Source: Bacteroidales bacterium (GTDB lineage: Bacteria; Bacteroidota; Bacteroidia; Bacteroidales; UBA4181). From it: a DNA stretch of 21,930 nucleotides. The notes below the pieces were generated by a model. The model saw only the letters and a program-made list of their open reading frames with translations. It was not told where the DNA came from and did not search any database. The stretch covers positions 1 to 21,930 of the forward strand of contig JAISCQ010000206.1 in assembly GCA_031265445.1 (NCBI GenBank), read 5' to 3'. The position numbers and the translations under genes are program-made. Positions 3,725 through 21,930 of the stretch are shown one piece after another. How positions within the stretch are numbered: the first letter of the stretch is position 1; each line of letters starts with the position of its first letter.

Positions 3725-6700
3725 TTAACCAAACAGATCCTTCAACGATACTTCTCTTTCCCTCACTTCTTCCACCTTATTGAGGCTCACGTACCACAGG
3801 AATCCCTTTACAGAAGCGTATCCCATTTTTCGCAGGTGTTCCATGTAGCGCAGCACCTGGTTCCGGTATTTTCCAGATTCTACTTCGCCGAACTTATAAT
3901 CGATCACTTGTATGTGCCCCTTTTCGAAAACGATCCGGTCAGGACGGGCAATGGAACCGTCGGGAAGCAGGATTTCCGCTTCGGTTTTCACCTGCATGCC
4001 CGGTGCAAACCATCGCCTGACGGTTGGGTTGACAAGCGCCTGATGTACCATATCAATAATGTGTGTCCGTTCCGCTTCTGACAGTTTGCCTTCGGTGATC
4101 ATCGTATTGAGGGTATGTTCCAGGTCGGCGGTGGTAACAATACTGCGGAAAATATCGTGTAACAGCCGGCCCTTGTTCATTTGGGCGCCAGATACAACGT
4201 CGGAGACAAAGTAGGCGCTGTTCCGCGTGATGTGCGGAACAAAATCCCAGGTACGCGGGGCTGATCGGCTCAAATACGATGCCTGCTCAGCGATCTTTTC
4301 TTCCTTTCCGGTTTCTTTTCCAGTCAAAATGCCTAATTCGAAACATAAAACACCCTTCTCACCCCTTTTCCAGGAGGGGAAATCCGTGCTGTTTGAGAGA
4401 GGTTGATGGTATATTCTGTGAATCAAATCTTTTATCCCGGTAAACTCGTTTTTCTCCTGTTGCGGAATCGAAATGAACAATGCTTTGCGGGCGCGGGTGA
4501 AAGCCACGTACAGCAGGTTCAGATTGTCGATGTACGACAGCATTTTTTCGCGCAGATATTCCTTCACAAAAACGGTGTTGCGCAGCGCCGGCTCGAATTT
4601 TAGCGGCAGGAGTTTCATATCGTTGAACGGCTCCCCTGCAGGCTGGCACCACAGCGTTTTTCCGGCCTTGCACAATGGCCAGTCGCAGAAAGGAATGATC
4701 ACGGCGTCGAACTCCAATCCCTTCGATTTGTGAATGGTGATCAGCCGGATGGCATCCTGGCTGTCGGGCATGGTCATGTATTTCCGGTTCTTTTCTCCTT
4801 CCCACCAGTCTAAAAACGAACGGACGTCGGTGGCTTCCCGCCGGGTGTACTGTAGCAAAATATCCTGAAATGCCTGCAAAAAAGGTGCTTGCCCGGCATT
4901 TTGATACAGATTGTATTGATGGATCAGCTTGTCGGACAGTTCGTATACAGGCAGGGAACTCTCCGTTTCTCCGCAGGAGAAAAGCGATGTGCTGTCCAAC
5001 AGTGATCCGGACGGGGACTCAACTCCTCCCCCCCTGTGGGAAGGGGGTTGGGGGGAGAGATATGTTTCGTACTCGTGTTGCAGGTACGCGCGGTTGATCA
5101 GGTCGTTGGGCTCCACGATATAGCGCATGGCCGCAACCAGCCATTTCACCGCGGGCGAATTACCAATCAGTAACGATTCGTTCGACAACACGTCGTAACG
5201 GTACTTCGAATCGGGGTTTGCCCGACGGTATGCGAGCAGCATATCGGCAATGGTTTGCGCCTCCCTGTTCTCGCGTACCAGTATGGCGATGTCCGACAAT
5301 CCGTATCCCATATCCTGCAGATGCTCTATACGCCGGGTCAGTTCTTCGAGCGCCTTGTCGCGCCATGTTTTTTCTGCATCCTTTTCTTCAGCAATTGCCG
5401 ACAGATGTACATAACCCTTTTCCTCTTTCTGCCGTTCGGGCAAATGTTGATAGCTGTCCTTATATGCTTCGGTCATCGACGCTGCCAGACCATGCAGATA
5501 TTCTTCATCGGCTGTTTTTTCCTCGTCGGTCAGGAAGGCTCCGCATAACTGCAATACGGCTTCCCGGAAAAAAGCATTGTTGAAGTGAACCACTTCGGGG
5601 GCGCTTCGCCAGTTCTTATCTAAGTTCCGCACCTTCACGTACTGTGAACCCAGGTCGCGTTCCACCTGTTCCGACAGGATTTTCCAGTCGGTATTACGCC
5701 AGCGGTAAATCGCCTGTTTCACATCGCCCACAATCCACTCCCGGTAACCCGAAGCGATGCTGTTGGCGACGAGCGGCCGGAAATTATCCCACTGGATGGA
5801 TGATGTATCCTGGAACTCATCGATCATGAAATGATTATAGAAACTGCCCACGCGTTCGTAGATGAACGGCGCGTCGGCATTGGCGATGATCGTTTTCAGG
5901 AATCCCGACGCTTCCGAGAGCAGGAACAGGTTCTGATTGCGGGTATACTCGTTCACGTAGCGCATCAGATCGCACAGCACGCCCAATACGTTGATTTGTT
6001 TCAGGATTACGGCGGCTGTGGCCACTTCCCGTGCATGTTCGGTTTGGTAGGTCACCATGTTTTGCAACATTTCACCTAATCCACCTTCATATGCATTCCT
6101 GACAGGGGTTTTCCAGTGCGAATATTTGCCATGCCAGCCTTCGATACCTTTGAGCGCCAGCATTACATAAGTATTGATCTTTGCTTCCTTCCGTTTGGAG
6201 AGTTTGTCAAAATATCCTCCCACTCCACTGCTTTTCCTGGTAAAATGATCGACTTCAAGTCCGTAACTTTCCATGATGGATATTGCCATCTGGCCGTATC
6301 CTTGCAGGTAATCCCAGTAACTATCGACCAATTGCTGCAATTTCATGCGGTAACGCTCCAAACTTTCCTTGTCGGTAGTTTCGCGCAATATCTCAGGCTC
6401 GATGTTTTGCAGTTCTTCGCTGAAAATCTCGCTTCCGAGCCGCAATACATCCGACTTGAAGTTCCATGACTTACCTTCTTCGATCTTCCGTTTGGCCCAT
6501 CCTACCAGCCAGTCCTTCAGAAAATCGTTCTTGTCGATATCGTCCAGCATCAGTCCGGTCGACTCGTCGAGTACCGAATCCTGGTCGAGTTCCACGTTAT
6601 ATCCGGCATACAGACCCATTTCGCGAGCAAACGAGCGGATTACCTTCTGGAAAAAACTGTCGATAGTGACTACCGAAAAATGAGAATAGTCATGCAGCAG

Positions 6701-7078
6701 GTATTTCAATACTTTCCCGGCTATGGCGGGCAGGTCGTTTTCGCGTATCCCTGTTGCTTCCGCCATATCCCCGATATACTTTTCGTCCTTGCGGTTAGCC
6801 ATACGGTGTAAGTCGCGCACAATGCGGCTTTTCATCTCTTCCGTGGCCTTGTTGGTAAATGTTACGGCAAGGATGCGCCGGTGATAGTTGCTGCTGCTCA
6901 GCAGCAACTTGATGTATTCGGCGGTAAGGGTATAGGTTTTTCCGGAACCGGCCGATGCGCGGTATATGGCAAGGTGGCTGATAAGCGGTACAATTTGGTT
7001 TATACGGCAAATGTAAGCAATTTTTGATTTTTGAAAGACGATTTGCGCTCGTATTTTTTGTAAAAAAAATACGAGCAT
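3725..7078 (-). CDS. UvrD/Rep-family superfamily-1 helicase fused to a C-terminal RecB-type PD-(D/E)xK nuclease (AddA/RecB-like helicase-nuclease)
   Basis: An N-terminal Walker A (IYRASAGSGKTYTLT) is followed by UvrD-like helicase motifs (MIDEFQDTS, VGDVKQAIYRWR). A C-terminal RecB-nuclease motif reads HIQVIDYKFGE followed by QVLRYMEHL (the QxxxY motif). Length is 1117 aa. Confidence 0.9.
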   Translation of the reverse strand: MLVFFLQKIRAQIVFQKSKIAYICRINQIVPLISHLAIYRASAGSGKTYTLTAEYIKLLLSSSNYHRRILAVTFTNKATEEMKSRIVRDLHRMANRKDEKYIGDMAEATGIRENDLPAIAGKVLKYLLHDYSHFSVVTIDSFFQKVIRSFAREMGLYAGYNVELDQDSVLDESTGLMLDDIDKNDFLKDWLVGWAKRKIEEGKSWNFKSDVLRLGSEIFSEELQNIEPEILRETTDKESLERYRMKLQQLVDSYWDYLQGYGQMAISIMESYGLEVDHFTRKSSGVGGYFDKLSKRKEAKINTYVMLALKGIEGWHGKYSHWKTPVRNAYEGGLGEMLQNMVTYQTEHAREVATAAVILKQINVLGVLCDLMRYVNEYTRNQNLFLLSEASGFLKTIIANADAPFIYERVGSFYNHFMIDEFQDTSSIQWDNFRPLVANSIASGYREWIVGDVKQAIYRWRNTDWKILSEQVERDLGSQYVKVRNLDKNWRSAPEVVHFNNAFFREAVLQLCGAFLTDEEKTADEEYLHGLAASMTEAYKDSYQHLPERQKEEKGYVHLSAIAEEKDAEKTWRDKALEELTRRIEHLQDMGYGLSDIAILVRENREAQTIADMLLAYRRANPDSKYRYDVLSNESLLIGNSPAVKWLVAAMRYIVEPNDLINRAYLQHEYETYLSPQPPSHRGGGVESPSGSLLDSTSLFSCGETESSLPVYELSDKLIHQYNLYQNAGQAPFLQAFQDILLQYTRREATDVRSFLDWWEGEKNRKYMTMPDSQDAIRLITIHKSKGLEFDAVIIPFCDWPLCKAGKTLWCQPAGEPFNDMKLLPLKFEPALRNTVFVKEYLREKMLSYIDNLNLLYVAFTRARKALFISIPQQEKNEFTGIKDLIHRIYHQPLSNSTDFPSWKRGEKGVLCFELGILTGKETGKEEKIAEQASYLSRSAPRTWDFVPHITRNSAYFVSDVVSGAQMNKGRLLHDIFRSIVTTADLEHTLNTMITEGKLSEAERTHIIDMVHQALVNPTVRRWFAPGMQVKTEAEILLPDGSIARPDRIVFEKGHIQVIDYKFGEVESGKYRNQVLRYMEHLRKMGYASVKGFLWYVSLNKVEEVREREVSLKDLFG
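5024..5060. repeat. GC-rich hairpin (CTCCTCCCCCC ... GGGGGGAGAG) embedded in-frame in the helicase CDS
   Basis: An inverted repeat of C- and G-runs is read directly. It encodes a Pro/Gly/Ser-rich low-complexity segment (PQPPSHRGGGVESPSGS) inside the helicase. Confidence 0.5.
7047..7076. promoter_or_regulatory. Perfect 13-bp inverted repeat GCTCGTATTTTTT-gtaa-AAAAAATACGAGC overlapping the first codons of the helicase gene
   Basis: A perfect palindrome is read directly. The helicase ATG (plus 7076-7078) abuts it, and codons 2-10 lie within it. It may be an operator or a translational control element. Confidence 0.4.
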
Positions 7079-7184: not shown

Positions 7185-7186
7185 AG

Positions 7187-7270
7187 TACCCAGGGCCGGG
7201 ATCGAACCGGCACGAGTGTTATCTCACTGGTGTTTGAGACCAGCGCGTCTACCAATTCCGCCACCTGGGC
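7187..7270 (-). tRNA. tRNA-Leu (anticodon CAA), type II with a long variable arm
   Basis: Folded by hand from the reverse complement GCCCAGG-TG-GCG-GAATTGGTAGA-CGC-G-CTGGT-CTCAAAC-ACCAG-TGAGATAACACTCGTG-GCCGG-TTCGATC-CCGGC-CCTGGGT-A. The acceptor stem has a G1:U72 pair, the D-stem is 3 bp, and the anticodon loop has U33 followed by CAA. The T-loop reads TTCGATC, the discriminator is A, and no CCA is encoded. Confidence 0.85.
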
Positions 7271-7290
7271 GTGGTGTCAAATTGCGGGTG

Positions 7291-7321
7291 CAAAGATACA
7301 GGTTTCTTTATTTCGGCCAAA
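7291..7321 (-). promoter_or_regulatory. Candidate tRNA-Leu promoter (-7 TAtcTTTG at 7298..7291 and -33 TTTG at 7321..7318 on the minus strand)
   Basis: An exact Bacteroidetes -7 consensus lies 20 bp from a TTTG. The predicted TSS is about 10 nt upstream of the tRNA 5' end. Confidence 0.5.
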
Positions 7322-7347
7322 TATTTTTAGATTTTTTCTTTACGGTT

Positions 7348-8661
7348 CTAAAAAAAGAAGCAAATCAGCAGGTTCGTGCGGAAGTTGGCTACTTCGGAGG
7401 CATCAACGATTTTTGCTTTATGATCGTTTTGTACCCTCCCGAATGCGGCTGCCGTGTATTCGAATTCGGCGGCAAACTGCCAGTTGTTCACGTTATAGAA
7501 CACATGCGGCGAAATGCGGTACATGTATTTAATGTCATGGGCGCGGGCGTACCAGGCTGCGCCTACTGCGTTGTCGAGCGTTCCCAGGCTGTTGAGGTAT
7601 CCGGCCAGCAAGCCTGCCTGCAATTTCTTGCCGTAGTCCACATTCACCCAGTAGTTCATGTGTTGCGTGGGTGTGTATTGCTCGTGCCCGGTATTCGGGT
7701 CAATAGCGCTCACCGCATAACCGCCGATCATCAACGACTCGGTGGTATTTTGCGCATAAGTGGCTTGCGCTTTGAACACCCAACTGCCGGCCTGATACTG
7801 TGCATAAGCCTGTACGGCATAAGTAGTGAGTTTTTCGTCGGTCTTGTATTTCGGTCCGTTGGTATCGGTATAGTCGGTCATTGTATAAAGGCGCGGTTTA
7901 ATGGATTTTATGCTTCCAACGATTCCAGCCTGGAACGCCGGGGTTTTGTATGCGACATTGACGGCAAATTCGGGCCACAGGGCATCGCGCAGATAGGTCG
8001 GACTTTTAACCGAGGTAGATGCGGTGCCGGGCGCAGGCCCCAGCGAAGCGTAGTCGCTTTGGTATACGGCAATGGCCGAGAGGAGCCAATGTCCCGGCTT
8101 GTAGTCGAACCGTACCTGATCGCTCCGGTTGAACGCCCAGAACGGCGCCCCGGTATTGAGTGCAATTACGTTAGGAACACAACCGGCGGCCAGCGGGTGC
8201 CATGTACGCCCCACGAGCAGGTTGGCTTTGGACCAGGCAAGGCCGGTATATGCCTGACGCAGGCGCACTCCGTTGGTATTGGAAGTTCCCGTGAAGTCGA
8301 ACTCAATGTAAGCCGACGATTTGGCGCCAAACACATCGGGAGCATAAAATCGCGTGCAAAGGCGCGATGCAATGGAAACAAAGTTGGCTTTGGGCGCGGC
8401 ATTAAGATCCTTGCCGTTGGCATCGAGCATTTTGTTCGAGGGGTAAAACGTAAACAATCCTTCAACAGCTTCGGCAGTCTGACGCGTATCATAGATGTAG
8501 TCGATCCGGGCAAACCCCGAAATTTGCAACCCAAACGAGCGGCCCAGCCGGATTGTGTCGTTACGGGAAAAAACCGGCAGGCAAAACAACTGTAAAACAG
8601 TGAATAACAAGAAAAAACATCGCGAAATAATTCTCATGGTTGTGCTATTTTCGGGACGCAA
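7348..8661 (-). CDS. Outer-membrane beta-barrel protein / putative porin with N-terminal signal peptide
   Basis: There is a hydrophobic signal peptide (MRIISRCFFLLFTVLQLFCLPVFS). Alternating amphipathic strands are rich in Y/F/W/N/G, and the protein ends in an aromatic residue (CFFF) typical of OM barrels. Length is 437 aa. Confidence 0.7.
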   Translation of the reverse strand: MRPENSTTMRIISRCFFLLFTVLQLFCLPVFSRNDTIRLGRSFGLQISGFARIDYIYDTRQTAEAVEGLFTFYPSNKMLDANGKDLNAAPKANFVSIASRLCTRFYAPDVFGAKSSAYIEFDFTGTSNTNGVRLRQAYTGLAWSKANLLVGRTWHPLAAGCVPNVIALNTGAPFWAFNRSDQVRFDYKPGHWLLSAIAVYQSDYASLGPAPGTASTSVKSPTYLRDALWPEFAVNVAYKTPAFQAGIVGSIKSIKPRLYTMTDYTDTNGPKYKTDEKLTTYAVQAYAQYQAGSWVFKAQATYAQNTTESLMIGGYAVSAIDPNTGHEQYTPTQHMNYWVNVDYGKKLQAGLLAGYLNSLGTLDNAVGAAWYARAHDIKYMYRISPHVFYNVNNWQFAAEFEYTAAAFGRVQNDHKAKIVDASEVANFRTNLLICFFF

Positions 8662-9886: not shown

Positions 9887-10798
9887 ATGTGGGAACAAGC
9901 AGTTAAAGATTTCGTTGCCTACCTGAAAATCGAGAAATCCTTGTCCATTAACACCATCGAGGCATATATCGACGACATGAACAAACTGCAGGCATATTTG
10001 CAGTCAATCGGTTCGTCGGCCGCGCCACAGGAAGTAACTCCTGCGATGTTGTCGGATTTTCTGGTATACGAAGGGGAGCTGGGCATGCGGGCGCGTTCGC
10101 AGGCGCGTATGCTATCCGGTATCCGTGCGTTTTACAAATACCTGCTGATGGATAACCTGATTGACGCGGATCCCACTCGTCTGGTGGATTACCCGAAGAT
10201 TGGCCGCAAGTTGCCCGACGTGCTCACCGTGCAGGAAATAGATGCGCTGTTGGGCGCTATCGACCTGAGCCTGCCGGAAAGTCAGCGTAATAAGGCGATG
10301 ATCGAAACCATGTATAGTTGCGGACTGCGGGTATCAGAGCTGACAGGATTGCATCTTTCCGATTTGTATCTGAAGGAAAGTTTTATTAAAGTGAAAGGCA
10401 AAGGCAGCAAGGAACGGATGGTGCCCATCAGCGATAAGGCCATACACGAAATCAAGCTGTATATGTCCGATCGCGCCAAGCTGGATATTGCTCGCGGACA
10501 CGAGGATTTCCTGTTTCTCAACCGGCGTGGCAAAATGCTTTCGCGTGTGATGGTGTTCACCATCATCAAGAACCTGTCGGCAACCATTGGTTTGCAGAAA
10601 AGCATCAGTCCGCATACGTTCCGTCATTCATTTGCCACACACCTGGTGGAAGGCGGCGCCGACCTGCGTGCCGTACAGGAGATGCTCGGACACGAATCGA
10701 TTCTTACCACCGAAATATACACCCACTTGGACCGTAGCTTTTTGAGGCAGACCATTGTGGAATTTCATCCGCGAAGTCGAAAAAGGAGTGAAGAGTGA
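9887..10798 (+). CDS. xerD: Site-specific tyrosine recombinase XerD
   Basis: There is an N-terminal core-binding domain (FVAYLKIEKSLSINTIEAYIDDMNKL). The catalytic domain carries the R...HxxR...Y signature (GLRVSELTGL ... HTFRHSFATHLVEGGADLRAVQEMLGHESILTTEIYTHL). Length is 303 aa. Confidence 0.9.
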   Translation: MWEQAVKDFVAYLKIEKSLSINTIEAYIDDMNKLQAYLQSIGSSAAPQEVTPAMLSDFLVYEGELGMRARSQARMLSGIRAFYKYLLMDNLIDADPTRLVDYPKIGRKLPDVLTVQEIDALLGAIDLSLPESQRNKAMIETMYSCGLRVSELTGLHLSDLYLKESFIKVKGKGSKERMVPISDKAIHEIKLYMSDRAKLDIARGHEDFLFLNRRGKMLSRVMVFTIIKNLSATIGLQKSISPHTFRHSFATHLVEGGADLRAVQEMLGHESILTTEIYTHLDRSFLRQTIVEFHPRSRKRSEE

Positions 10799-12619: not shown

Positions 12620-13546
12620 TTATTGATTCAGTGTTTTAAGACGGGCAAGCTCTGCGAGCAGGAGTTCCTTTTCGGCAATAGCGGCTTCTTTTTCGGTGCG
12701 TTCACGGGCAAGAGCAACGTCTTTTTCGGCAAGAGCAGCGTCTTTTTCGGCAAGAGCAGCTTCCTGCTGTTCAATTTTTTGCAGGTTGTCTTTTTCCGAC
12801 GATTCCAGCAATTCCTGATAAGTCTCCCATGCTTCGATTTCGGCTTCTATCCTCGCGCGTTCTTTGGCGTCGGAAGCGCAATAATGCAGGATATCCGTTA
12901 TCCGGCGAATATTTTTGTCTTCAACCGGATAATGATAGTATTTTGTCATTTTGCTGTCGACAAAACTGTCCTGTATAAACACGCTCAGCAGCTTATCCAA
13001 ATCTGTCGTGTAACGTTCCTTTTCTATTTTGCGGGTTTGTACCACCACGCAGTTGTGCATTATGCGCTCTATAAAATGACTTTTTACATCCATGTCCGTT
13101 TCGTGGATTGCATCGAAATAGCTTTTGTTCACCCGAACACAGGACGTCGCAATCTCCGGCAATTCGAAACCTAAAATATAGATGGCGATTATCGGCAAGC
13201 CGGTTTCCCTGCCGTCAACCACATCATTCCGTTTATACTGCTCGGCAATATAGTTTCTGAACCGGCTGAGATTGGTTATTTTCAATGCTTTTTGAACTTC
13301 TATCAACACTTTCGTGTATTCACTGTCTCCGGTTTGGACGGTTGCAACAAAATCAAGCCGGTACATGCGCAGGGCTACTGCCAGCGCTTTTGCCTGTTCG
13401 TCTTCCATGTACATTACTTCCTGTGATTTCACTTCGATGGAAACTACAGGCTTGCCTAAAAGAGTACTTACGATGAACTTTGAAGTCTCGTTATCCTCCG
13501 TCAGTCTCTTGAAAACCGTGTCATATATTGGATTTGCTATAATCAT
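12620..13546 (-). CDS. Second Rpn-family (YhgA-like) PD-(D/E)xK nuclease paralog with a C-terminal coiled-coil
   Basis: The protein MIIANPIYDTVFKRL ... YRLDFVATVQTGDSEYTKVLIEVQ has the same fold family as its neighbour. The C-terminal repeats AALAEKDAALAEKDVALAR are encoded by 21-bp DNA tandem repeats at about 12690-12760. Length is 308 aa, and it lies 28 bp upstream of the first paralog on the same strand. Confidence 0.8.
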   Translation of the reverse strand: MIIANPIYDTVFKRLTEDNETSKFIVSTLLGKPVVSIEVKSQEVMYMEDEQAKALAVALRMYRLDFVATVQTGDSEYTKVLIEVQKALKITNLSRFRNYIAEQYKRNDVVDGRETGLPIIAIYILGFELPEIATSCVRVNKSYFDAIHETDMDVKSHFIERIMHNCVVVQTRKIEKERYTTDLDKLLSVFIQDSFVDSKMTKYYHYPVEDKNIRRITDILHYCASDAKERARIEAEIEAWETYQELLESSEKDNLQKIEQQEAALAEKDAALAEKDVALARERTEKEAAIAEKELLLAELARLKTLNQ

Positions 13547-13783: not shown

Positions 13784-16700
13784 TCATGGGTTAGAAACTC
13801 CGAATTTTCCATCCGGCGGAACAAGTGGCGCACTCGACGATACCGCCGTTGCCAGCGCCGCCTTGATTCCTTCCAATCCCTCATTGAATTGCGCCAATTG
13901 CGCAATCACTTGTCCCATCGGGTTGTCCTGTCCGATACCTGCCAGCTTGTTGTTTTTCAGGAAAATTGTTTTGATGGCTTCCCAACGGTTACGATCGCTG
14001 TCGGTGAGTTTCCCGGTGATTTCCTTTAATTTCAGCAGGTTTGCTTCGTTGTCGGAAGTCAGTGTCTGGGCTTCGCTTTCATAATGGTTCAGGATGAGGG
14101 TATCTACTTCGGCAGCGTTCATCAAGGGGAGGATGAGTCCTGTCATTTTGTTCATATCGCGGTACGAGCCTTGCAGTTTGAACGGCGGTTCGGTGCGGTA
14201 GGCATCCTTCGTGGCGGCACTGGCGATGTACTGCCGGTTCACTTGCAGTACTGTTTCGCGTACTTGCATGGCATGGCGCGCTACGGCAATGAAGTCGTCC
14301 ACATCCTGGCGGGTATGGTTGCCCTCGAGGTTGAGCAGCGTCTCGTCGCCGGTTTCCACGAACCGTATCAACCGATAGAAGTCGGCGAAACTTTTGCTGC
14401 CGACTTTTTGCAGGCAGGAGTTTTCGGCCATGGCGTTTTCGAGGAGACTCAGACGGAACAGGTCTTCCGAACCGCCGATGACGTCGCCGAGGTTGTACAC
14501 GTCGGCACGATTAGCGAGCATGTCGGGTATGCGGAACTTTTCGCCGCTCTCGGTGTAGGGGTTGCCGGCCATCACCACACAGAAGCGCTTGCCGCGAAGG
14601 TCGTAAGTTTTGCTTTCGCCGTCGAACGTGCCGTCCATCTTGCGCTGACCGTCGGCCAGCGAGATGAATTTTTGCAGAAATTCGGGGCTGCAGTGCTGTA
14701 TATCGTCGAGGTAGAGCATCACGCTGTCGGCCATCTCGAATGAGAGATTGATTTTTTTCAGTTCCTCGCGCGCGCCGGAAGTTTTGGCTTCGGACGGATC
14801 GATGGATGTGATGGAATGGCCGATGGTGGGGCCGTTGATCTTCACGAACGTCAATCCCATGGTCTTGGCCAGATATTCCATGAGTGTCGTTTTACCGTAT
14901 CCGGGAGGCGACACAAGCAGGAGCATCCCCATACGGGCGGTACGCTTGTCTTCTCCGGCTACGCCCAACTGTTTGGCAAGATTGGCGCCGATGAGCGGCA
15001 AGTATACTTCGTTGATGAGCTTATTGCGGACAAAGGATGTCAGTACGCGAGGTTTCAGTTCGTTCAGCTTCAATGTTTTCTTGAAATCTGCCACCAGCGT
15101 TTCTTTCAGATGGATAAACTCATTGTATGCCGGGACGCAGGTTTCCGTAAAGTAAGTCATCCTGTCGACAAAGCGATGGTAATCCTGTGCATAGAAACCG
15201 TTGACAATCACGGCATGGTTTCCTTTCAGACCGTCGGTGTCCATTTGGTCGCCGCTTCTGTGCAGGATATATTCGCCGCCGGTGTCGAATAACAACAGGC
15301 AGGCCGCTTCTTCCGGGTATTTTCGCAACTGTTCGCAGTTTTTCGATTCATCTATAAAAGACTCCAGCCAATTACATGTCAAATGGAAACGCTCCGCCTG
15401 ATCGAATGACTCGTCGCGGATGTCGGTTTCGAACCGGTGAAGGAAATCCTTTTTCCCGAGGTAATGAAGAAAATCCTTTTTTAGCGTTTCCGCCTGTTCG
15501 CTTTTGGTAAATGAGGGCGATGCGGAAAATTCGCGAAAGAGATATTCCGCTATGAGCGACTCCCTGCCCTCCTCTCCGCAAGGGAGGGAGAACACGCCGC
15601 CTGACGGTAACGGAAAACGAAGACTCTTCTCCGATTCCGGATCCTCTTTACGGAAGAGTTCTTTTATCCGCTCCATCACATATTTATAGTGATCCGATTC
15701 CGGGAAGACTTTCAGGACGGAACTTGCCGAAGCAATCATCTTTATCAGCCTGTCTCTCTGCATATCTTCAAGGCTGTACCAAAGCAGTTGCGCAGACGCC
15801 CGTATGCGGGGCGTGAACGAAAGTATTCCCAACTCTTTGTTTACAGCCTCGAGCATTTGGTAAATCCGCACCGCATCATCATCATGCACACCCTTGACAT
15901 ACGACTCCGAATAGCATTGCTCTACCTTGTGGGTGATGAAGGCTTTCGGGTCGAAATCTTTCGTCTTGCTCTTTTCTGCAAAAGTTTGCCAGGCAAGGTA
16001 TTCGGCGCGGTAAACCTGCGCATTTTCCGACACGGTTTCCTGCTCCCAGTAATCGCGGTAAGCGGCGAGACGTTCGCTGCGAAGCTCGTGGAAAAATCCC
16101 GTCCCCATGAGGTGGTAGAACAGACGGTTATCGCGCCGCACCACCGTGAGGTCGAGCGGCTGCCTGTTCACGGTAAACTTATGCGTCCCGAGGCTGATGA
16201 TCTGCTGCCCGTCCACAAACAGTTCGTTACGGTCTTTGAGCACGCGCAGCGCATCCTCGCGCGAGGTTTTCAGGCTGTTTTCGAGATTTTCGGCTTTCGA
16301 TACATCGCCGAGGCTTTTCAGGTCGTCCACCAATTGCCGTACCTTGTCAATCATCAGGTCGGATGAGAAAAACGATTGTATCTCCTCTTTGGTCTTGAAC
16401 GATTGTGCCTTGTTTTCAATGTTTTTCAACACCCGAAGCCCGATTTGCTCGAGCGATGAGCTGCGCCGGTTGATCTGCTCCATCAGTTGCGCTTTGCGAC
16501 CGTCGAATGCTTTGGTGATTTCGTCGCGCTTATCGGCAATCTTACCGATAAACTCGTCGAAATCGGCAAACTTGCCTTCCATTTCTTCCACCTGAATGCT
16601 CGCCTTGGCGAAATATTCGTCGCATTTGGGCAGCGAGGCGGCCAGTTCGAGGTAGTTTGCCACGCTCTGTTCGAGCAGGGTAAGCTGTGCGCTGAACTCG

Positions 16701-18784
16701 GCTACGGCTTCGCGATTGCGTAACGAGTCGATCTTCCGCTTGAGCTGCGCCCGCAGTTCGTTGAGCGACGAGAAGATGAGCGATATTTTTTCGATGATGC
16801 GCGTGGCTTGTGTGGTATCCTCTATTTTCAGGCTGTTGAGGATGTCGATAAGCAATTCCAGTTCCGACGAGATGAGTTTGCAGTTTTCGTCCACCCTGTT
16901 GGCATCGATCACCTTGGTTACTTCCTCCACGCGCGCTTTTTCGGCAACCGTTTTTTCTTCGTAGGGCGCCAGCGCTTCGTCGCGGAGCAGAAATTCGACA
17001 GTCTTTGCAGACAGGATCGTATTGGTTTCGGCCAACCGGTTTTTCAATTCGTTTACACGGGTTATATCCGCGTACTTCACGTTGCCCAGTTCAATAACTT
17101 CACCTTGCAGGCGTCGTGTTTCGGCCAGCAGTTTTACCAACGAGTCCAGCGTATCGAATTTGGCGTGCTTGATGCGGAACATCAGCGCATCCACCTTGTC
17201 GACCGTGATCGTGAGTTGCTGTGCGGCGTGCTTTTTCTGCGCCTGCACCTTTTCGAACTCATCAATGGCAGTGTTGGCTATTTTCTTGATTTCCTTCAAC
17301 GGATCGGACATCCTGAAAGCAGCATCGTCCGACACCCAGAAATAGGCATCGACAATGTCGTTCGACTTCTTCACAATATCCTCATAAAGGCCTTCGTACG
17401 AGTCCTCTTTGTTGATCAGGTAAATGACCTCCTGACATTCGGCCATTACCTTCACAATATCCTTGTTGCCGATCTTGTAGAGTTGGTTACCGCATTTTTC
17501 CGGATTCTCGATGAGTCGTTCCTGATAAGGCGTCTGCCAAATCTGCACCTGGTGATGGCGCGTGGCTTCCACCTCGGAGCGGAAATAAATGAGCGCGCCG
17601 TCGCCAAAGAACGTGAAACCGTTGCAGATAATCGGCGTTTCCACTTGCTGCCGGATGATGTTGTACGACATCAGCACGTAGATATTGCGCTCATGCTGGT
17701 AAAAGATGTACAGGAAATCCTCGCCGTTGGGCGATGTCATTTTGCGGAAAAATTCGAGGTTCGACAGGTCATTGTCGAAAATTTTGTATTCGCCGTTTTG
17801 CAGGTAATAGCCATTGGGGAAGATCACGCCGTGATGGTCGGGCAGCAGGATACCGGCATCATTGAGCATCGGTATGTTGTGCACTTCCCTGGTCCGGGTA
17901 TTGAACACGAACGCGCGGTAACTTTCCTGATAGGGCTTGATGCGCACCAGGATCAGGTTGCCCAGGTCGGCGTAGTAATACTCGGCGTCGTCTAACTGCT
18001 GGTCTTTATTTTCGACTTTTTCGGCATAGATACCCTTGCCGGTCTGCGTATTGTCCTCAATCTTGAAGGTAATATCGCCGCCAACGGCTTCAATAAAAAC
18101 CCTGTCGAGCACCGACACATGCGGATATACGCCTAACCGGCGGTCTTCGAGGGTCGTTTTCGTCCATTTAAATTCGTGCTGTTCGGCGCGTTTCACCTCG
18201 TGGATGCTGCGATCATCCCGATATATCAGCCTGTCGCCCTTGATCAGCCACTTGAAGGCTTTCAGGTCGTCGACATTCTTTCCGGTCTGGAAAATCATGT
18301 ACAGGTAATTTTCCGTCCGGCGGAAACGCGAAAAGATGGAGTCGCGGTAATATCTGTACAGGTTTTTATAATCGTTCACAAACTGTTCATCATCGATCAG
18401 GTCGAGCGATTGCGGTATAAACTGGTGGTCCTCGAAACGGTAGATGCTGAACACGTCGCTCAACTGTATGTCCGATCGCAGCCCGAAATGCACGTTGTAG
18501 CCGAAAATACAAAGTTTCCCGAAGGCCATGATACCGCGCGACACGCAATTGTTCTCGGTGTTGATGCGCTGGTTGGCCAGCAGTGTGAAATCGATGGCGC
18601 GGAAAACCTCCTTGCGGGCATCGTTGAGCCGGCCAAGCCGCTGCGACAGATCGTCGCGCTGTGCAAAAAGCCGCTTGCGGATGATTTCGTATGTGCCGGC
18701 GTCTAATGTCTCGGCTGGCTGGTTGGTGTCTTGCATTGATGTCTTTGTTGATTCGGAATTTTTTCCCGTCAAGGATACATTCAT
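13784..18784 (-). CDS. Giant (1666 aa) uncharacterized multidomain protein containing a MoxR/AAA_5-type AAA+ ATPase module near its C-terminus
   Basis: A long uninterrupted ORF with strong codon structure. The AAA_5 signature reads LLLVSPPGYGKTTLMEYLAKTMG (Walker A), then LYLDDIQHCSPEFLQKFISLADGQRKMDG (Walker B), then RFCVVMAGNPYTESGEKFRIPDMLANRADVY (sensor-1). The N-terminal ~480 aa are aromatic- and beta-strand-rich, and residues ~500-850 form an extended charged coiled-coil. No TM segment or signal peptide is present. It is co-directional with, and 50 bp downstream of, the flotillin gene. Confidence 0.85.
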   Translation of the reverse strand: MNVSLTGKNSESTKTSMQDTNQPAETLDAGTYEIIRKRLFAQRDDLSQRLGRLNDARKEVFRAIDFTLLANQRINTENNCVSRGIMAFGKLCIFGYNVHFGLRSDIQLSDVFSIYRFEDHQFIPQSLDLIDDEQFVNDYKNLYRYYRDSIFSRFRRTENYLYMIFQTGKNVDDLKAFKWLIKGDRLIYRDDRSIHEVKRAEQHEFKWTKTTLEDRRLGVYPHVSVLDRVFIEAVGGDITFKIEDNTQTGKGIYAEKVENKDQQLDDAEYYYADLGNLILVRIKPYQESYRAFVFNTRTREVHNIPMLNDAGILLPDHHGVIFPNGYYLQNGEYKIFDNDLSNLEFFRKMTSPNGEDFLYIFYQHERNIYVLMSYNIIRQQVETPIICNGFTFFGDGALIYFRSEVEATRHHQVQIWQTPYQERLIENPEKCGNQLYKIGNKDIVKVMAECQEVIYLINKEDSYEGLYEDIVKKSNDIVDAYFWVSDDAAFRMSDPLKEIKKIANTAIDEFEKVQAQKKHAAQQLTITVDKVDALMFRIKHAKFDTLDSLVKLLAETRRLQGEVIELGNVKYADITRVNELKNRLAETNTILSAKTVEFLLRDEALAPYEEKTVAEKARVEEVTKVIDANRVDENCKLISSELELLIDILNSLKIEDTTQATRIIEKISLIFSSLNELRAQLKRKIDSLRNREAVAEFSAQLTLLEQSVANYLELAASLPKCDEYFAKASIQVEEMEGKFADFDEFIGKIADKRDEITKAFDGRKAQLMEQINRRSSSLEQIGLRVLKNIENKAQSFKTKEEIQSFFSSDLMIDKVRQLVDDLKSLGDVSKAENLENSLKTSREDALRVLKDRNELFVDGQQIISLGTHKFTVNRQPLDLTVVRRDNRLFYHLMGTGFFHELRSERLAAYRDYWEQETVSENAQVYRAEYLAWQTFAEKSKTKDFDPKAFITHKVEQCYSESYVKGVHDDDAVRIYQMLEAVNKELGILSFTPRIRASAQLLWYSLEDMQRDRLIKMIASASSVLKVFPESDHYKYVMERIKELFRKEDPESEKSLRFPLPSGGVFSLPCGEEGRESLIAEYLFREFSASPSFTKSEQAETLKKDFLHYLGKKDFLHRFETDIRDESFDQAERFHLTCNWLESFIDESKNCEQLRKYPEEAACLLLFDTGGEYILHRSGDQMDTDGLKGNHAVIVNGFYAQDYHRFVDRMTYFTETCVPAYNEFIHLKETLVADFKKTLKLNELKPRVLTSFVRNKLINEVYLPLIGANLAKQLGVAGEDKRTARMGMLLLVSPPGYGKTTLMEYLAKTMGLTFVKINGPTIGHSITSIDPSEAKTSGAREELKKINLSFEMADSVMLYLDDIQHCSPEFLQKFISLADGQRKMDGTFDGESKTYDLRGKRFCVVMAGNPYTESGEKFRIPDMLANRADVYNLGDVIGGSEDLFRLSLLENAMAENSCLQKVGSKSFADFYRLIRFVETGDETLLNLEGNHTRQDVDDFIAVARHAMQVRETVLQVNRQYIASAATKDAYRTEPPFKLQGSYRDMNKMTGLILPLMNAAEVDTLILNHYESEAQTLTSDNEANLLKLKEITGKLTDSDRNRWEAIKTIFLKNNKLAGIGQDNPMGQVIAQLAQFNEGLEGIKAALATAVSSSAPLVPPDGKFGVSNP

Positions 18785-18790
18785 GTAAGA

Positions 18791-18820
18791 CCTGATCAGG
18801 TTTTTGAAAAACCTGACAGG
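18791..18820. other. Intra-operon hairpin CCTGATCAGGTTTTT-g-AAAAACCTGACAGG between the flotillin stop and the giant ATPase start
   Basis: A 10-bp perfect stem (TCAGGTTTTT/AAAAACCTGA) with flanking near-complementary arms. It contains the same CCTGACAGG motif as the hairpins at 3641 and 7096. The internal CCTGATCAGG is itself palindromic. Confidence 0.55.
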
Positions 18821-18834
18821 TCATGACGTTCGGC

Positions 18835-20952
18835 TTACACCAGCTTTTTGTTCGATACGCCCAATGCTTTTGCGGCGCTTAGCAACCGCCCCAGCATGCC
18901 TTTTTCCCCATCGTCCGAGCGTTGCTGCATTTTGAGGATCAGGCCGGCGATACTCAGATTCTTGATGTCTTCGGACGAGATATTCAATTTATCGGCAAAC
19001 TCGCGGATCTTGCCGTATAAGTCGCCGCTGCCGTTCACATCCAGCAGGGCATCCCTGATCTGCCTGGCGGTAGCGCTTTCTTCCACCAGCCGGTCGAAGC
19101 CCCTGGCAGTGGATATCTGCTTGATGATGTTGTCGAAGAACATGGTTTCGCCACCCACGATATCGATGTCCGCCGACTTCATGGCTTCGGCCAATACTTC
19201 GGCCTGCGCTTCGGCAATATCCTTCTGGATGCTGATTTGCGCCAGTTCCACGTCTTTTTCCTTCTGCAACAGGAGTTTAAATTCTTCATGTTCCTTACCC
19301 ACGCCGTCGAATTTCTTCATCGCCTCGGCTTTTTCTTCGATACCGGCTGCGTCGGCCAGCGCTTTTTCTTTCACGCCTGCTGCTTCGGCCAGCGCTTTCT
19401 GCTTGATCACTTCGGCTTCAGCCAGTCCTTCTTTCTTTTTAGCTTCGGCGCGCGCTTCGATACCAGCGGCTTCGGCGCGTGCTCTCTTTTCGATGACGGC
19501 TGCTTCGGCTTGTCCCTGTTTTTCGATAGCGGCTGCCTGCGCATGCATTACTTCGGCTTCGGCCAGTCCCTTGGTCGCTTCTTCGCGGGCTTGCGCTTCC
19601 ACAAGTACCTTACGGGCTTCGGCCTGTTTTACCGATGCTTCCTTGCGGGCTTCAGCGTCAATCAGCAATTCTTTTGCGCTTGCTTCGGCGTCGATCACTT
19701 TCTGCGCGGCTTTTTCTGCGGCGGCTTTCTTCTCCGCTTCGGCTTCCTTTACGGTGATGATCAGGCGCTGCTCGGCTTCCTGACTGGCGGCAGTGATCCC
19801 TACCTGTTTCTGGCGGTCGATTTCGCGGAACGCTTCGATATCCTTCATGTTCTGTTTTTCTTCTACCACGCTTTTTTCCAATTGTACCCGTTCGCGGATC
19901 ACGTCCTGGATGTTCTTCTTTTCTTCTTCAATTACCTTTTCCTTGTCGATCTGCGCCAGGGTCACGATCCGTTCGCGTTCGGTCTGTTCCAGCGCACGGT
20001 CTTTTTCCACGCGTTCCTTTTCCACGGCTTCGGTGCGTTCCTTGTTCTTTTCGGCGATGATGATCTGGCGCAGCTTGTTTTCTTCCTGTACGGCAAGGCT
20101 TTCCTCAGTATTGATGCGTACGCTCTGGCATTTTAGACGTTCTTCCTCACGCACCTTGATAATTTCCGCTTCTTCGCGGGCTTTCACGTTGTCGATTTCG
20201 CGCTTCTGCTTTTCTTCTTTTTCGGCCAATTGGCGTTCGAGTTCCAGGATTGCTTCGCGGGCTTCCACATTCTGTTTCTTGATGGTTCTCTCCTCATCGC
20301 GGCGGATCTGGTTTGCCTTGATATTCTGGGCTGCGGTAAGTTCGGTAATCTTCTTGATACCTTCCGAGTCGAGGATATTTTCGGGACTCAAGTATTGCAA
20401 GTCGGTCTGCTCGAGGTAGTCAATGGCACAGTCGTCCAGAATATAGCCATTCAGGTCGGTCCCGATGATGTTCAGTATCTCGTCGCGGAACTCGCGGCGG
20501 GCTTCATATAACTCGATGAAATCGAATTTTTTCCCTACGGTTTTCAAGGCTTCCGAAAACTTCGACTCGAAAAGACTTTTCAGCGTCAATACGTCGCTGG
20601 CTCGCTCGCAACCAATGGTTTGCGCTACGTTGATCACATCGCCGGCCGATTTGTTCACGCGGATAAAAAACGCCACCTTAATGTCGGCGCGGATGTTGTC
20701 CTTACAGATCAGCCCGTCGTGTCGCGAACGCTCGATTTCGAGCTTTTTCACGGAAATATCCATGATTTCCATCTTGTGGAAAACAGGAATGACATACATC
20801 CCTTTGTTGAAGGCGATTTTGGTACCCCCGACGCCCGTTCGTACAATGGATTTCCCTTGCGGTATTTTCTTGTAGAACGATGCTAATAAAGCCAGCAAGA
20901 CTAATATCACAAAAAATACAGTCCCTGCTAAGATGACAATGATTTGTCCCAT
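18835..20952 (-). CDS. Flotillin-like SPFH/band-7 family protein (FloT/YqiK-like) with an N-terminal TM anchor and an extended Glu/Ala-rich coiled-coil
   Basis: An N-terminal TM helix (IIVILAGTVFFVILVLLALLASF) is followed by an SPFH domain (GKSIVRTGVGGTKIAFNKGMYVIPVFHKMEIMDISVKKLEIER ... DNIRADIKVAFFIRV). Long EA/K-rich flotillin repeats follow (AEAEVIKQKALAEAAGVKEKALADAAG...). Length is 705 aa. Confidence 0.85.
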   Translation of the reverse strand: MGQIIVILAGTVFFVILVLLALLASFYKKIPQGKSIVRTGVGGTKIAFNKGMYVIPVFHKMEIMDISVKKLEIERSRHDGLICKDNIRADIKVAFFIRVNKSAGDVINVAQTIGCERASDVLTLKSLFESKFSEALKTVGKKFDFIELYEARREFRDEILNIIGTDLNGYILDDCAIDYLEQTDLQYLSPENILDSEGIKKITELTAAQNIKANQIRRDEERTIKKQNVEAREAILELERQLAEKEEKQKREIDNVKAREEAEIIKVREEERLKCQSVRINTEESLAVQEENKLRQIIIAEKNKERTEAVEKERVEKDRALEQTERERIVTLAQIDKEKVIEEEKKNIQDVIRERVQLEKSVVEEKQNMKDIEAFREIDRQKQVGITAASQEAEQRLIITVKEAEAEKKAAAEKAAQKVIDAEASAKELLIDAEARKEASVKQAEARKVLVEAQAREEATKGLAEAEVMHAQAAAIEKQGQAEAAVIEKRARAEAAGIEARAEAKKKEGLAEAEVIKQKALAEAAGVKEKALADAAGIEEKAEAMKKFDGVGKEHEEFKLLLQKEKDVELAQISIQKDIAEAQAEVLAEAMKSADIDIVGGETMFFDNIIKQISTARGFDRLVEESATARQIRDALLDVNGSGDLYGKIREFADKLNISSEDIKNLSIAGLILKMQQRSDDGEKGMLGRLLSAAKALGVSNKKLV

Positions 20953-21364: not shown

Positions 21365-21537
21365 ATGCCAAAAATATACGATAACATAGAAAATCACCTT
21401 TCAAAAGGACTTAACGAAACGCTTGGTTTGTCGCAGCGGACAGATTTTGCGTGGGATATTTCAATTTAAGAGGATGATTTTATCATCAATTACGATATAA
21501 AATATCGGATGGGCAAAGAGTTAAACGAGGATGAGTA
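21365..21537 (+). pseudogene. Decayed N-terminal remnant of a PLD/HKD-nuclease-helicase-type (defense-island helicase) gene
   Basis: A 34-codon ORF (MPKIYDNIENHLSKGLNETLGLSQRTDFAWDISI, then stop) resembles the characteristic N-terminus of HKD/PLD-domain-fused SF2 helicases (M-K-[IL]-x-D-N-x(4)-L-x(3)-L-x(3)-L-x(2)-[SG]-x-R-x-[DK]-[FI]-A). The same frame continues after the stop (EDDFIINYDIKYRMGKELNEDE, then stop), and no downstream body follows. Confidence 0.3.
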
Positions 21538-21559
21538 AGAATTAGAACAGAAAATTATT

Positions 21560-21930
21560 ATGATAAATTTAGAAAAAATATCGGAATACAAAGAAAACAA
21601 CCAACTTGAACTGAAATTGGCACAGGGGCGAGATGGTCGGGGTGCAATTCCTGCGTCAATATGGGAAACATATTCGGCGTTTGCAAATACTGACGGCGGC
21701 TTGATTTTACTTGGAGTAAACGACAATCTTGAAGTTGTCGGCATTGCAAATCCCGAAAAATTAGTGCAGGACTTTTGGAACCTGCTCAACAGTAAGAGCA
21801 AAGTAAATCGTAATATTTTAATGGAGCGCAATGTCAAAATTGAGGCGGCAGAAGGGAAGAAAATTATTTCTATCACAGTGCCGCGAGCCGAAAGGAGTTT
21901 GCGACCGATATTTCTTGGCAAAGACCCTTA
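21560..21930 (+). CDS. AlbA_2 / 'divergent AAA' (Schlafen-like) putative DNA-binding domain protein, 5' partial, running off the right edge
   Basis: The ATG at 21560 is open to the window end. The translation MINLEKISEYKENNQLELKLAQGRDGRGAIPASIWETYSAFANTDGGLILLGVNDNLEVVGIANPEKL... matches the AlbA_2 (PF04326) N-terminal signature (E.....E.K.....lp..i...isAfAN..GG.i.iGv.d.g.v.G). It is absent from the ORF track only because no stop lies within the window. Confidence 0.7.
   Translation, partial: MINLEKISEYKENNQLELKLAQGRDGRGAIPASIWETYSAFANTDGGLILLGVNDNLEVVGIANPEKLVQDFWNLLNSKSKVNRNILMERNVKIEAAEGKKIISITVPRAERSLRPIFLGKDP

Follow-up and report, generated by a model that had tools for sequence, protein, structure and literature searches.

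What does a flotillin gene do next to the gene for a giant AAA+ ATPase, and do the two belong to a system that has been seen before? The question is raised by contig JAISCQ010000206.1 of a Bacteroidales bacterium (assembly GCA_031265445.1), which was analyzed at its full length of 21,930 nucleotides and is referred to here as the window. A first-pass annotation, made from the nucleotide sequence and its open reading frames (ORFs), had pointed to a membrane-anchored flotillin and a cytoplasmic protein of 1666 amino acids (aa) as a candidate two-gene operon of an uncharacterized system. The ORF listing bore out the arrangement of the pair. Both genes are on the minus strand, they are co-directional with the flotillin gene upstream, and a gap of 50 bp separates the two ORFs, which are located as follows:

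18835..20952, minus strand: flotillin-like SPFH gene, 705 aa (ORF, hydropathy, Band_7 match)
13784..18784, minus strand: giant cytosolic ATPase gene, longest ORF 1666 codons (ORF, Pfam)

An operon that joins a flotillin to a giant ATPase is not new; it has already been described, and the family of the ATPase has already been catalogued by Pfam and NCBI. In a comparative genomics study of the phage-shock-protein (PspA), Ravi et al. 2024 (mSystems, PMC11237479; preprint 2020) reported CesT/Tir-PspA operons with three further genes, in the order CesT/Tir-PspA-YqiJ/YuaF-Band-7/flotillin-"beta-propeller + coiled-coil + AAA+ ATPase" (PMC11237479). According to the authors, shortened versions with flotillin, YqiJ/YuaF and in some cases the ATPase occur widely, and the Dokdonia donghaensis example in their Table S3 (ANH61663.1) has exactly the gene order that was recovered here (PMC11237479). 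The window pair contains the flotillin and the giant ATPase of this operon and resembles it in the architecture of the ATPase, in gene order and in strand; it is almost certainly a member of the family described by Ravi et al. It differs in that only the last two genes are present, while the published abbreviated forms normally keep YqiJ.

The first-pass annotation could not place the giant protein beyond its ATPase module. A Pfam search showed that it is a typical member of the family that combines DUF3686, DUF7902 and an AAA module, to which NCBI gives the name "DNA repair ATPase". The match to DUF3686 (PF12458) reached 562 bits against a cutoff of 25 (E 9.6e-169) and covered profile positions 1-448 of 448; DUF7902 (PF25472) was also matched in full, and no structural difference from the family was found. 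The regions of the protein are listed below (AF2, AlphaFold2; pLDDT, predicted local distance difference test):

17339..18652, minus strand: DUF3686 (PF12458), aa 45-482, beta-propeller-like, with flanking helices packed as a bundle (Pfam)
16235..17338, minus strand: long helical region, probably a coiled coil, aa 483-850, ~370 aa (composition, AF2 helices entering on both sides)
16730-16978, minus strand: DUF7902 (PF25472), aa 603-685 (Pfam, E 6e-24, 84.5 bits)
15065..16234, minus strand: conserved middle domain, aa 851-1240, in which a short beta segment precedes a helical domain (AF2, alignment)
14435..15037, minus strand: AAA+ ATPase core, aa ~1250-1450 (Pfam, PDB matches, alignment)
13787..14434, minus strand: C-terminal helical region, aa 1451-1666 (alignment invariants, AF2 helices with pLDDT 65-84)

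The N-terminal part is predicted to consist of a helix bundle and a beta-propeller fold. We infer the coiled-coil character of aa 483-850 from its composition (0.8% P and 1.9% G, rich in E, K, L and A) and from the AF2 helices. In a model of aa 840-1666 the middle domain has pLDDT values mostly of 80-93, and its invariant residues include D851, G866, E920, G965, H967 and D970. A family-specific invariant motif, YRTEPPFKLQGSYR, occupies aa 1529-1542 within the C-terminal helical region. A hydropathy scan found no hydrophobic segment anywhere in the protein, in agreement with the cytoplasmic location that had been proposed for it.

The family is large and conserved. More than 4055 homologs of the giant protein were found at E <= 1e-10, the DUF3686 domains fall into 677 clusters at 50% identity, and full-length members mostly measure 1600-1900 aa. 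In an alignment of 62 diverse members (28-61% identity) the motifs SPPGYGKT, DDxQH, GNPYT, PDMLxNR and YRxEPxF.LQGSYR are invariant. The window protein is typical in length and motifs; it has DUF7902, a single C-terminal AAA+ module, the invariant motifs and a length within ~1600-1900 aa, and every family-invariant residue is intact. The three ATPase motifs that had been recognized at first reading, SPPGYGKTT (Walker A, aa 1292-1300, nt 14885-14911), LYLDDIQH (Walker B, aa 1357-1364, nt 14693-14716) and VVMAGNP (aa 1403-1409), are all present and are invariant or nearly so among the 62 members. The core also contains sensor-1 GNPYT and the candidate Arg finger PDMLANR (nt 14507-14578), and the nucleotide site appears competent as far as its residues tell. 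When one genome per species was scanned, at least 585 species had a copy; the carriers among the matches listed were Bacteroidota, Planctomycetota, Verrucomicrobiota, Kiritimatiellota, Desulfobacterota and Clostridia, and a scan of plasmid records added Gammaproteobacteria, Actinomycetota and Deinococcus.

The flotillin was confirmed as membrane-anchored: its sole hydrophobic segment is an N-terminal anchor (aa 1 to ~30), and it is followed by the domain that defines the superfamily:

20305..20868, minus strand: flotillin SPFH / Band_7 domain, aa 29-216 (PF01145; 45.7 bits, cutoff 23.6)

This Pfam match was obtained with the first 283 aa as the query (E 1e-11). The full-length protein had no match in Pfam, NCBIfam or the PDB, which we attribute to its EA-rich, low-complexity coiled coil. 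The region concerned, aa ~216-600 (~385 aa), is helical and contains 20% E, 17% A and 0% P, and it is followed by a C-terminal region of aa 601-705. The Pfam domain "Flot" (PF15975) was not found in aa 460-705 or 560-705 at E <= 0.1, a search in which compositional bias may mask a match. An anchor, a Band_7/SPFH domain and then a long coiled coil are the features of SPFH2-type flotillins (YqiK/FloT type), and the window protein has all of them. The positive-inside rule would place both the SPFH domain and the long helical stretch on the cytoplasmic side. The SPFH domain is 52-85% identical to those encoded upstream of giant-protein homologs at ~60 loci. A long antisense ORF traverses the EA-rich region of the flotillin gene in three homologous loci, where tblastn recovers the flotillin.

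To what extent the two genes belong together can be read from their homologs. Eighty loci (labeled with L numbers here), each covering the giant gene and at most 10 kb to either side, were analyzed by ORF calling, product clustering and a tblastn check, and partners were counted where 3.5 kb or more of upstream sequence was available, which was the case for 63 loci. In 60 of these 63, the giant gene is immediately preceded by an SPFH gene on its own strand, and the adjacency was verified in at least eight phyla. The linkage between flotillin and ATPase is thus old and strong, and the proposal that they form a functionally linked module is supported; homologs that mostly lack an adjacent SPFH gene, the outcome that would have spoken against it, were not what we found. 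The first-pass annotation had also stressed that canonical flotillin operons contain an NfeD protein and not a giant AAA+ protein. This contrast is misleading, since an NfeD-like gene (~230 aa, YqiJ_N by Pfam) precedes the flotillin gene in 57/63 loci. PspA_IM30 was found in 29/63 loci and CesT_Tir_1 in 26/63, the two together in about 40%, mainly in Bacteroidota, where these genes adjoin a divergently transcribed XRE-type helix-turn-helix (HTH) gene. The full operon is composed of an XRE-HTH regulator and then CesT/Tir, PspA, YqiJ (NfeD-like), flotillin and the giant AAA+ ATPase, and the form described by Ravi et al. was recovered in full in 26-29/63 related loci. One of them (L084) is a Bacteroidales relative 74% identical to the window protein, with an HTH gene followed by CesT_Tir-PspA-138 aa-YqiJ-DUF2007-flotillin-ATPase. 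The Pfam matches at another locus (L004) had E values of 4.5e-7 for YqiJ_N, 2.7e-42 for PspA_IM30 and 1.3e-49 for CesT_Tir_1. Independent gene calls with Pfam annotation gave the same order in Myroides odoratus (L001) and in L084, and an annotated Streptomyces record has the pair "flotillin family protein - DNA repair ATPase". The annotation of Pseudomonas plasmid pQBR103 likewise has "SPFH domain-containing protein - DNA repair ATPase", after a YjfI-PspA-polyamine block.

Two further observations were made at these loci. On the 425-kb plasmid pQBR103 of Pseudomonas fluorescens SBW25 (L085, 84437-97641), the SPFH-ATPase pair ends a co-directional block of ten genes, YjfI-PspA-rhomboid-DUF2491-DUF350-DUF1190-glutathionylspermidine synthase-hypothetical-SPFH-ATPase, which unites two types of PspA operon treated separately by Ravi et al. 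At many loci (L014, L017, L019, L023, L026, L030, L047, L050, L053, L054 and others) the flotillin and ATPase genes are separated by a small ORF (100-240 aa) or by a spacer of 0.5-1.7 kb; the small ORFs do not cluster with one another and may be lineage-specific genes or artefacts of ORF calling.

What could the pair do? Ravi et al. propose ATP-dependent roles in membrane remodeling or assembly, and they also suggest a role like that of a chaperone, in assembling complexes linked to the membrane (PMC11237479). On balance, it is likely that the pair acts in membrane stress or remodeling. With somewhat less confidence, we lean towards a more specific reading: the window pair is an abbreviated copy of a widespread chromosomal membrane stress/remodeling operon, whose ATPase would remodel flotillin and/or PspA assemblies on the cytoplasmic side of the membrane. 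If the flotillin behaves like the SPFH proteins whose assemblies have been solved, it would build an oligomeric cage or dome at the membrane's inner face. The giant ATPase would oligomerize and dock on it through the propeller or the coiled coil, and where PspA is present it would also dock on PspA polymers. Powered by ATP, it would then put these scaffolds together, reshape them or dismantle them, in parallel to the action of Vps4 on ESCRT-III and of NSF on SNAREs. This reading is favored by the architecture and the invariant ATPase motifs that the 62 diverse members share, by the conserved gene linkage described above, by the topology (one anchor in the flotillin, none in the ATPase), by the beta-propeller fold, and by AAA+ fold neighbors that are remodeling or unfolding machines. 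According to a 2025 review, a Vps4-like ATPase for PspA "appears absent in bacteria". Because it is genetically tied to flotillin and PspA, the giant ATPase family is an obvious candidate for such a role; that it is the missing bacterial counterpart of Vps4/NSF, disassembling or reshaping flotillin cages and PspA polymers during membrane repair, is a tentative idea that we put forward as possible.

The AAA+ module had been labeled AAA_5/MoxR-type at first reading, a label that is not established. At aa 1288-1412 the Pfam families AAA (PF00004, 35.5 bits) and AAA_5 (33.2 bits) are tied, both above their cutoffs, and the best matches in the PDB, from the single sequence and from a profile, were classical AAA proteins (VAT, p97, Rix7, Rpt3). 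A profile of the whole protein family found no match in the PDB, and a sub-profile of the AAA region was required. With 17 diverse members, its best matches were classical AAA proteins (Rix7/NVL, VAT, p97, AFG2 and NSF), in an alignment that spans helix alpha0, Walker A and beta2 only; midasin appeared as one match among the PDB relatives. The segment GNPYTESG...IPDMLANR follows a pattern (NP.E..G...P..L.NR) that we take to resemble MoxR-type motifs. Because of the Pfam tie, the classical-AAA matches in the PDB and this MoxR-like sensor-1/Arg segment, the assignment is best left between the two clades. For a MoxR protein, AAA_5 would be clearly the best match, the length would be ~300-350 aa and a VWA gene would usually be the partner. 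Here AAA_5 scores 33.2 versus 35.5 bits, the protein probably measures 1650 aa (see below), and no VWA partner was seen among the conserved neighbor clusters of giant-gene homologs. The Foldseek neighbors of the C-terminal model were Ycf2-FtsHi, FtsH, dynein, Lon, ClpC, p97, RuvB and spastin; since the AAA core was modeled poorly, these matches indicate just an AAA+ machine and no clade.

The same matches can be read in another way, in which client membrane-protein complexes gathered by the flotillin scaffold have the ATPase as their chaperone or assembly factor, and the scaffold polymers are not its substrates. Both AAA_5 and AAA being above the Pfam cutoffs would suit MoxR-like or CDC48-like remodeling, p97/CDC48, VAT, FtsH and Lon among the PDB and fold neighbors act on client proteins, the beta-propeller is a typical module for binding substrates or adaptors, and the chaperone-like role suggested by Ravi et al. 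points in the same direction (PMC11237479). However, no conserved client gene is found nearby and the recurrent partners are scaffold proteins only. The VWA partner typical of MoxR systems is missing from the conserved neighbor clusters, and Pfam detected no protease domain in the giant protein. We consider this main rival unlikely, although it is the strongest of the alternatives, and prefer the reading in which flotillin and PspA are themselves the substrates.

The pair was also compared with known systems. HflK/C-FtsH, an SPFH cage around an AAA+ protease, shares with it the genetic or physical pairing of an SPFH scaffold with an AAA+ machine, and FtsH is among the fold neighbors of the ATPase model. 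FtsH differs in being membrane-embedded and in having an M41 protease domain, and HflK/C is a pair that faces the periplasm; in the window, no Peptidase_M41 match or hydrophobic segment was found in the giant ATPase, which is soluble and has very different accessory domains, and there is a single flotillin gene, whose SPFH domain is predicted to be cytoplasmic. The resemblance is thus an analogy and not a membership. The YqiK-YqiJ pair of E. coli and the FloT/YuaG-YuaF pair of B. subtilis share with the window an anchored SPFH2-type flotillin with a long coiled coil, and the YqiJ_N gene upstream in the relatives matches their YqiJ/YuaF partner. In contrast to these flotillin-NfeD pairs, the window flotillin is ~700 aa long with a longer EA-rich region, the giant ATPase gene is next to it, and there is no NfeD-like partner. 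To our knowledge, the flotillin operons of E. coli and B. subtilis have no such giant ATPase. In Vps4-ESCRT-III and PspF-PspA, as in the full operon, an AAA+ ATPase is coupled to an ESCRT-III-superfamily polymer, which in the operon is PspA and where the coupling is genetic. The N-terminal half of the AAA core resembles classical AAA proteins. Neither the MIT domain nor the Vps4 oligomerization domain was detected in the giant ATPase, a protein more than three times larger. The sigma-54 activator and HTH regions of PspF are missing from it as well, and the window contains no PspA.

Several observations weigh against the reading that we favor, and some of them come from the ATPase itself. The Walker B motif reads DD, and not DE, followed by an invariant Q and H (DDIQH, aa 1360-1364, 14693-14707) in 62/62 members. 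This is unusual for an AAA+ protein and may mean slow, switch-like hydrolysis instead of processive threading. Manual alignment found no aromatic-hydrophobic-Gly pore-loop motif after beta2, and the pLDDT of the AAA core is 37-56 in the model of aa 840-1666. We found no experimental study of any family member. No publication was found that mentions DUF3686, DUF7902, or "flotillin" together with "DNA repair ATPase", and neither Hinderhofer et al. 2009 nor the 2026 P. aeruginosa SPFH paper mentions the giant ATPase. The other points of this kind come from the locus. Searches by tblastn with the YqiJ-like (four representatives), PspA, HTH regulator and CesT/Tir genes had no match in the window. 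The two closest relatives of the giant gene differ upstream: at L003, where the giant protein is 88% identical, a gene with a SEC-C motif lies upstream of the giant gene (L003:1-511), and at L083 (85% identical) a HisKA/HATPase_c histidine kinase gene lies 20 bp upstream (L083:6034-7065); neither has a flotillin there, nor do three further loci. Because of these loci, adjacency to a flotillin gene is not obligatory.

Is the window pair then still an operon at work? Neither the YqiJ/YuaF gene of the published operon nor the CesT/Tir-PspA part that distinguishes its full form is present, and the 978 bases upstream of the flotillin gene contain no YqiJ-like ORF. The window thus carries a stripped-down, two-gene version of the operon, unusual in that it lacks YqiJ, and in the Bacteroidales clade to which it belongs the operon is evidently undergoing rearrangement. 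Upstream of the flotillin gene there are ~400 bp without a convincing ORF, then a short frameshifted ORF and then an ORF of AlbA_2 type on the opposite strand:

within 21365-21928, plus strand: 34-aa ORF (MPKIYDNIENHL...), then in another frame "...CVGYFNLRG" and a stop (sequence)
21560-21928, plus strand: SLFN_AlbA_2-domain ORF that runs past the contig end (Pfam, E 1.6e-13)

The AlbA_2 gene had been recognized at first reading and was confirmed by the domain match. The 34-aa ORF region looks like the frameshifted N-terminal remnant of a PLD/helicase-type gene; the "HKD-helicase remnant" of the first-pass annotation received no confirmation from hidden Markov model searches.

These features could mean that the pair in this genome is itself a decaying remnant, whose two genes may no longer cooperate. 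The missing YqiJ-like, PspA, HTH regulator and CesT/Tir genes (c2-c5), the unrelated genes upstream of the giant gene in the two close relatives and the frameshifted gene remnant just upstream of the flotillin would all fit such decay. Set against this, both ORFs are full length with the family-invariant residues all intact, the SPFH domain shares 82-85% identity with its counterparts in full operons, and the genes are co-directional, with a short spacer in which no terminator was called. Decay is therefore improbable in our view, and in the source genome the pair would work either alone or with partners encoded elsewhere.

The spacer depends on where the giant gene begins. The true start is probably M17 (ATG at 18736), which gives a product of 1650 aa and a spacer of 98 bp. 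This start is favored because the 100%-identical NCBI model has 1650 aa and because DNA homology with the closest relative (L003) begins ~20 nt upstream of that ATG. The spacer contains a hairpin:

18789..18822, minus strand: near-perfect 16-bp hairpin GACCUGUCAGGUUUUUCAAAAACCUGAUCAGGUC, after the flotillin stop codon (sequence, RNA fold)

The RNA fold of 18737-18840(-) has a minimum free energy of -29.1 kcal/mol (z -3.47), and 0/200 shuffles were equally stable. No T-run was found 3' of the hairpin, and a terminator scan of the spacer called no terminator-like site, the hairpin included. It could serve in RNA processing or in attenuation. Comparison with the closest relative is impossible, as the upstream gene there differs.

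In a different suggestion, the pair would be an anti-phage or abortive-infection module, made up of an SPFH scaffold and an NTPase effector, in a defense island. Other features noted in the window are:

12620-13546, minus strand: 308-aa ORF between the PDDEXK_2 (Rpn-like) gene and the giant gene (no Pfam match)
9887-10798, plus strand: XerC/D-type tyrosine recombinase
7186-7270, minus strand: tRNA-Leu(CAA) (ARAGORN and Rfam)
3725-7078, minus strand: AddA-like UvrD helicase with a C-terminal PD-(D/E)XK nuclease, 1117 aa

The first-pass annotation had listed two Rpn paralogs. One PDDEXK_2 protein stood, while the 308-aa ORF had neither BLASTP similarity to it (E 2.1) nor a Pfam match. The AddA-like and XerC/D-type genes look like ordinary chromosomal genes, and no conservation of either was found near homologs of the pair. 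The tRNA-Leu(CAA) overlaps the 5' end of ORF 7216-8595(+), which overlaps ORF 7348-8661(-) in antisense; neither ORF had a Pfam match.

The nuclease-type neighbors (PDDEXK_2, the AlbA_2 ORF and the AddA-like helicase-nuclease) had led to the hint of a defense island. A PADLOC-DB 2.0 search of the pair gave a single, weak match, to mad8 over the P-loop (E 1e-4), which could be taken to point the same way. PspA was originally discovered as a phage-induced protein, and this too can be counted in favor. Beyond the P-loop match PADLOC was silent on the pair, and the window's nuclease-type neighbors are not conserved around homologs. The 135 genes that flank the 80 loci are mostly unrelated, of metabolic or housekeeping type, with no Pfam family in more than three of them. 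PADLOC gave only a handful of sporadic matches among these genes, with no enrichment; mad2 was the sole model matched twice, and the one mad2-matching gene that was inspected encodes a PrmA-type methyltransferase by Pfam. No homolog of the family was found in 50,697 phage records, and only 13/72,556 plasmid records had one, mostly megaplasmids or chromids. The hint was thus not borne out by PADLOC, by the phage and plasmid scans or by the flanking genes, and the defense reading, which we regard as very improbable, was rejected.

The name given by the databases suggests yet another function, that of a DNA repair ATPase whose adjacency to a flotillin would be incidental. The Pfam description is "ATPase involved in DNA repair" and the NCBI name is "DNA repair ATPase", weak RuvB_N / RuvB matches were obtained over the P-loop region, and SbcCD is encoded ~6.6 kb downstream in Myroides. 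The RuvB matches are nevertheless confined to the P-loop and reach 22 bits against a cutoff of 282, and the SbcCD neighborhood is not conserved. No DNA-binding or nuclease domain was detected in the giant protein with Pfam and NCBIfam, the conserved partners are all membrane-associated (flotillin, YqiJ, PspA), and no paper was found that supports the name. We infer that a spurious resemblance of the coiled coil to SbcC/Rad50 (COG0419, "ATPase involved in DNA repair") gave rise to it. With a supporting domain or context absent, the DNA-repair reading was also rejected; it is the least probable of those considered here, and nothing in the gene context backs the name "DNA repair ATPase".

The window itself is one more, reduced instance of an operon that is already published, and it adds little to it beyond showing that flotillin and ATPase genes can stay together where YqiJ, PspA and CesT are missing from the locus. 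Flotillins and PspA are membrane scaffolds that have been studied widely in bacteria, and the family to which the pair belongs bears on the question of how their turnover is driven. If the giant ATPase were the bacterial counterpart of Vps4/NSF, this would explain the recycling of otherwise nucleotide-independent scaffolds in at least eight phyla.

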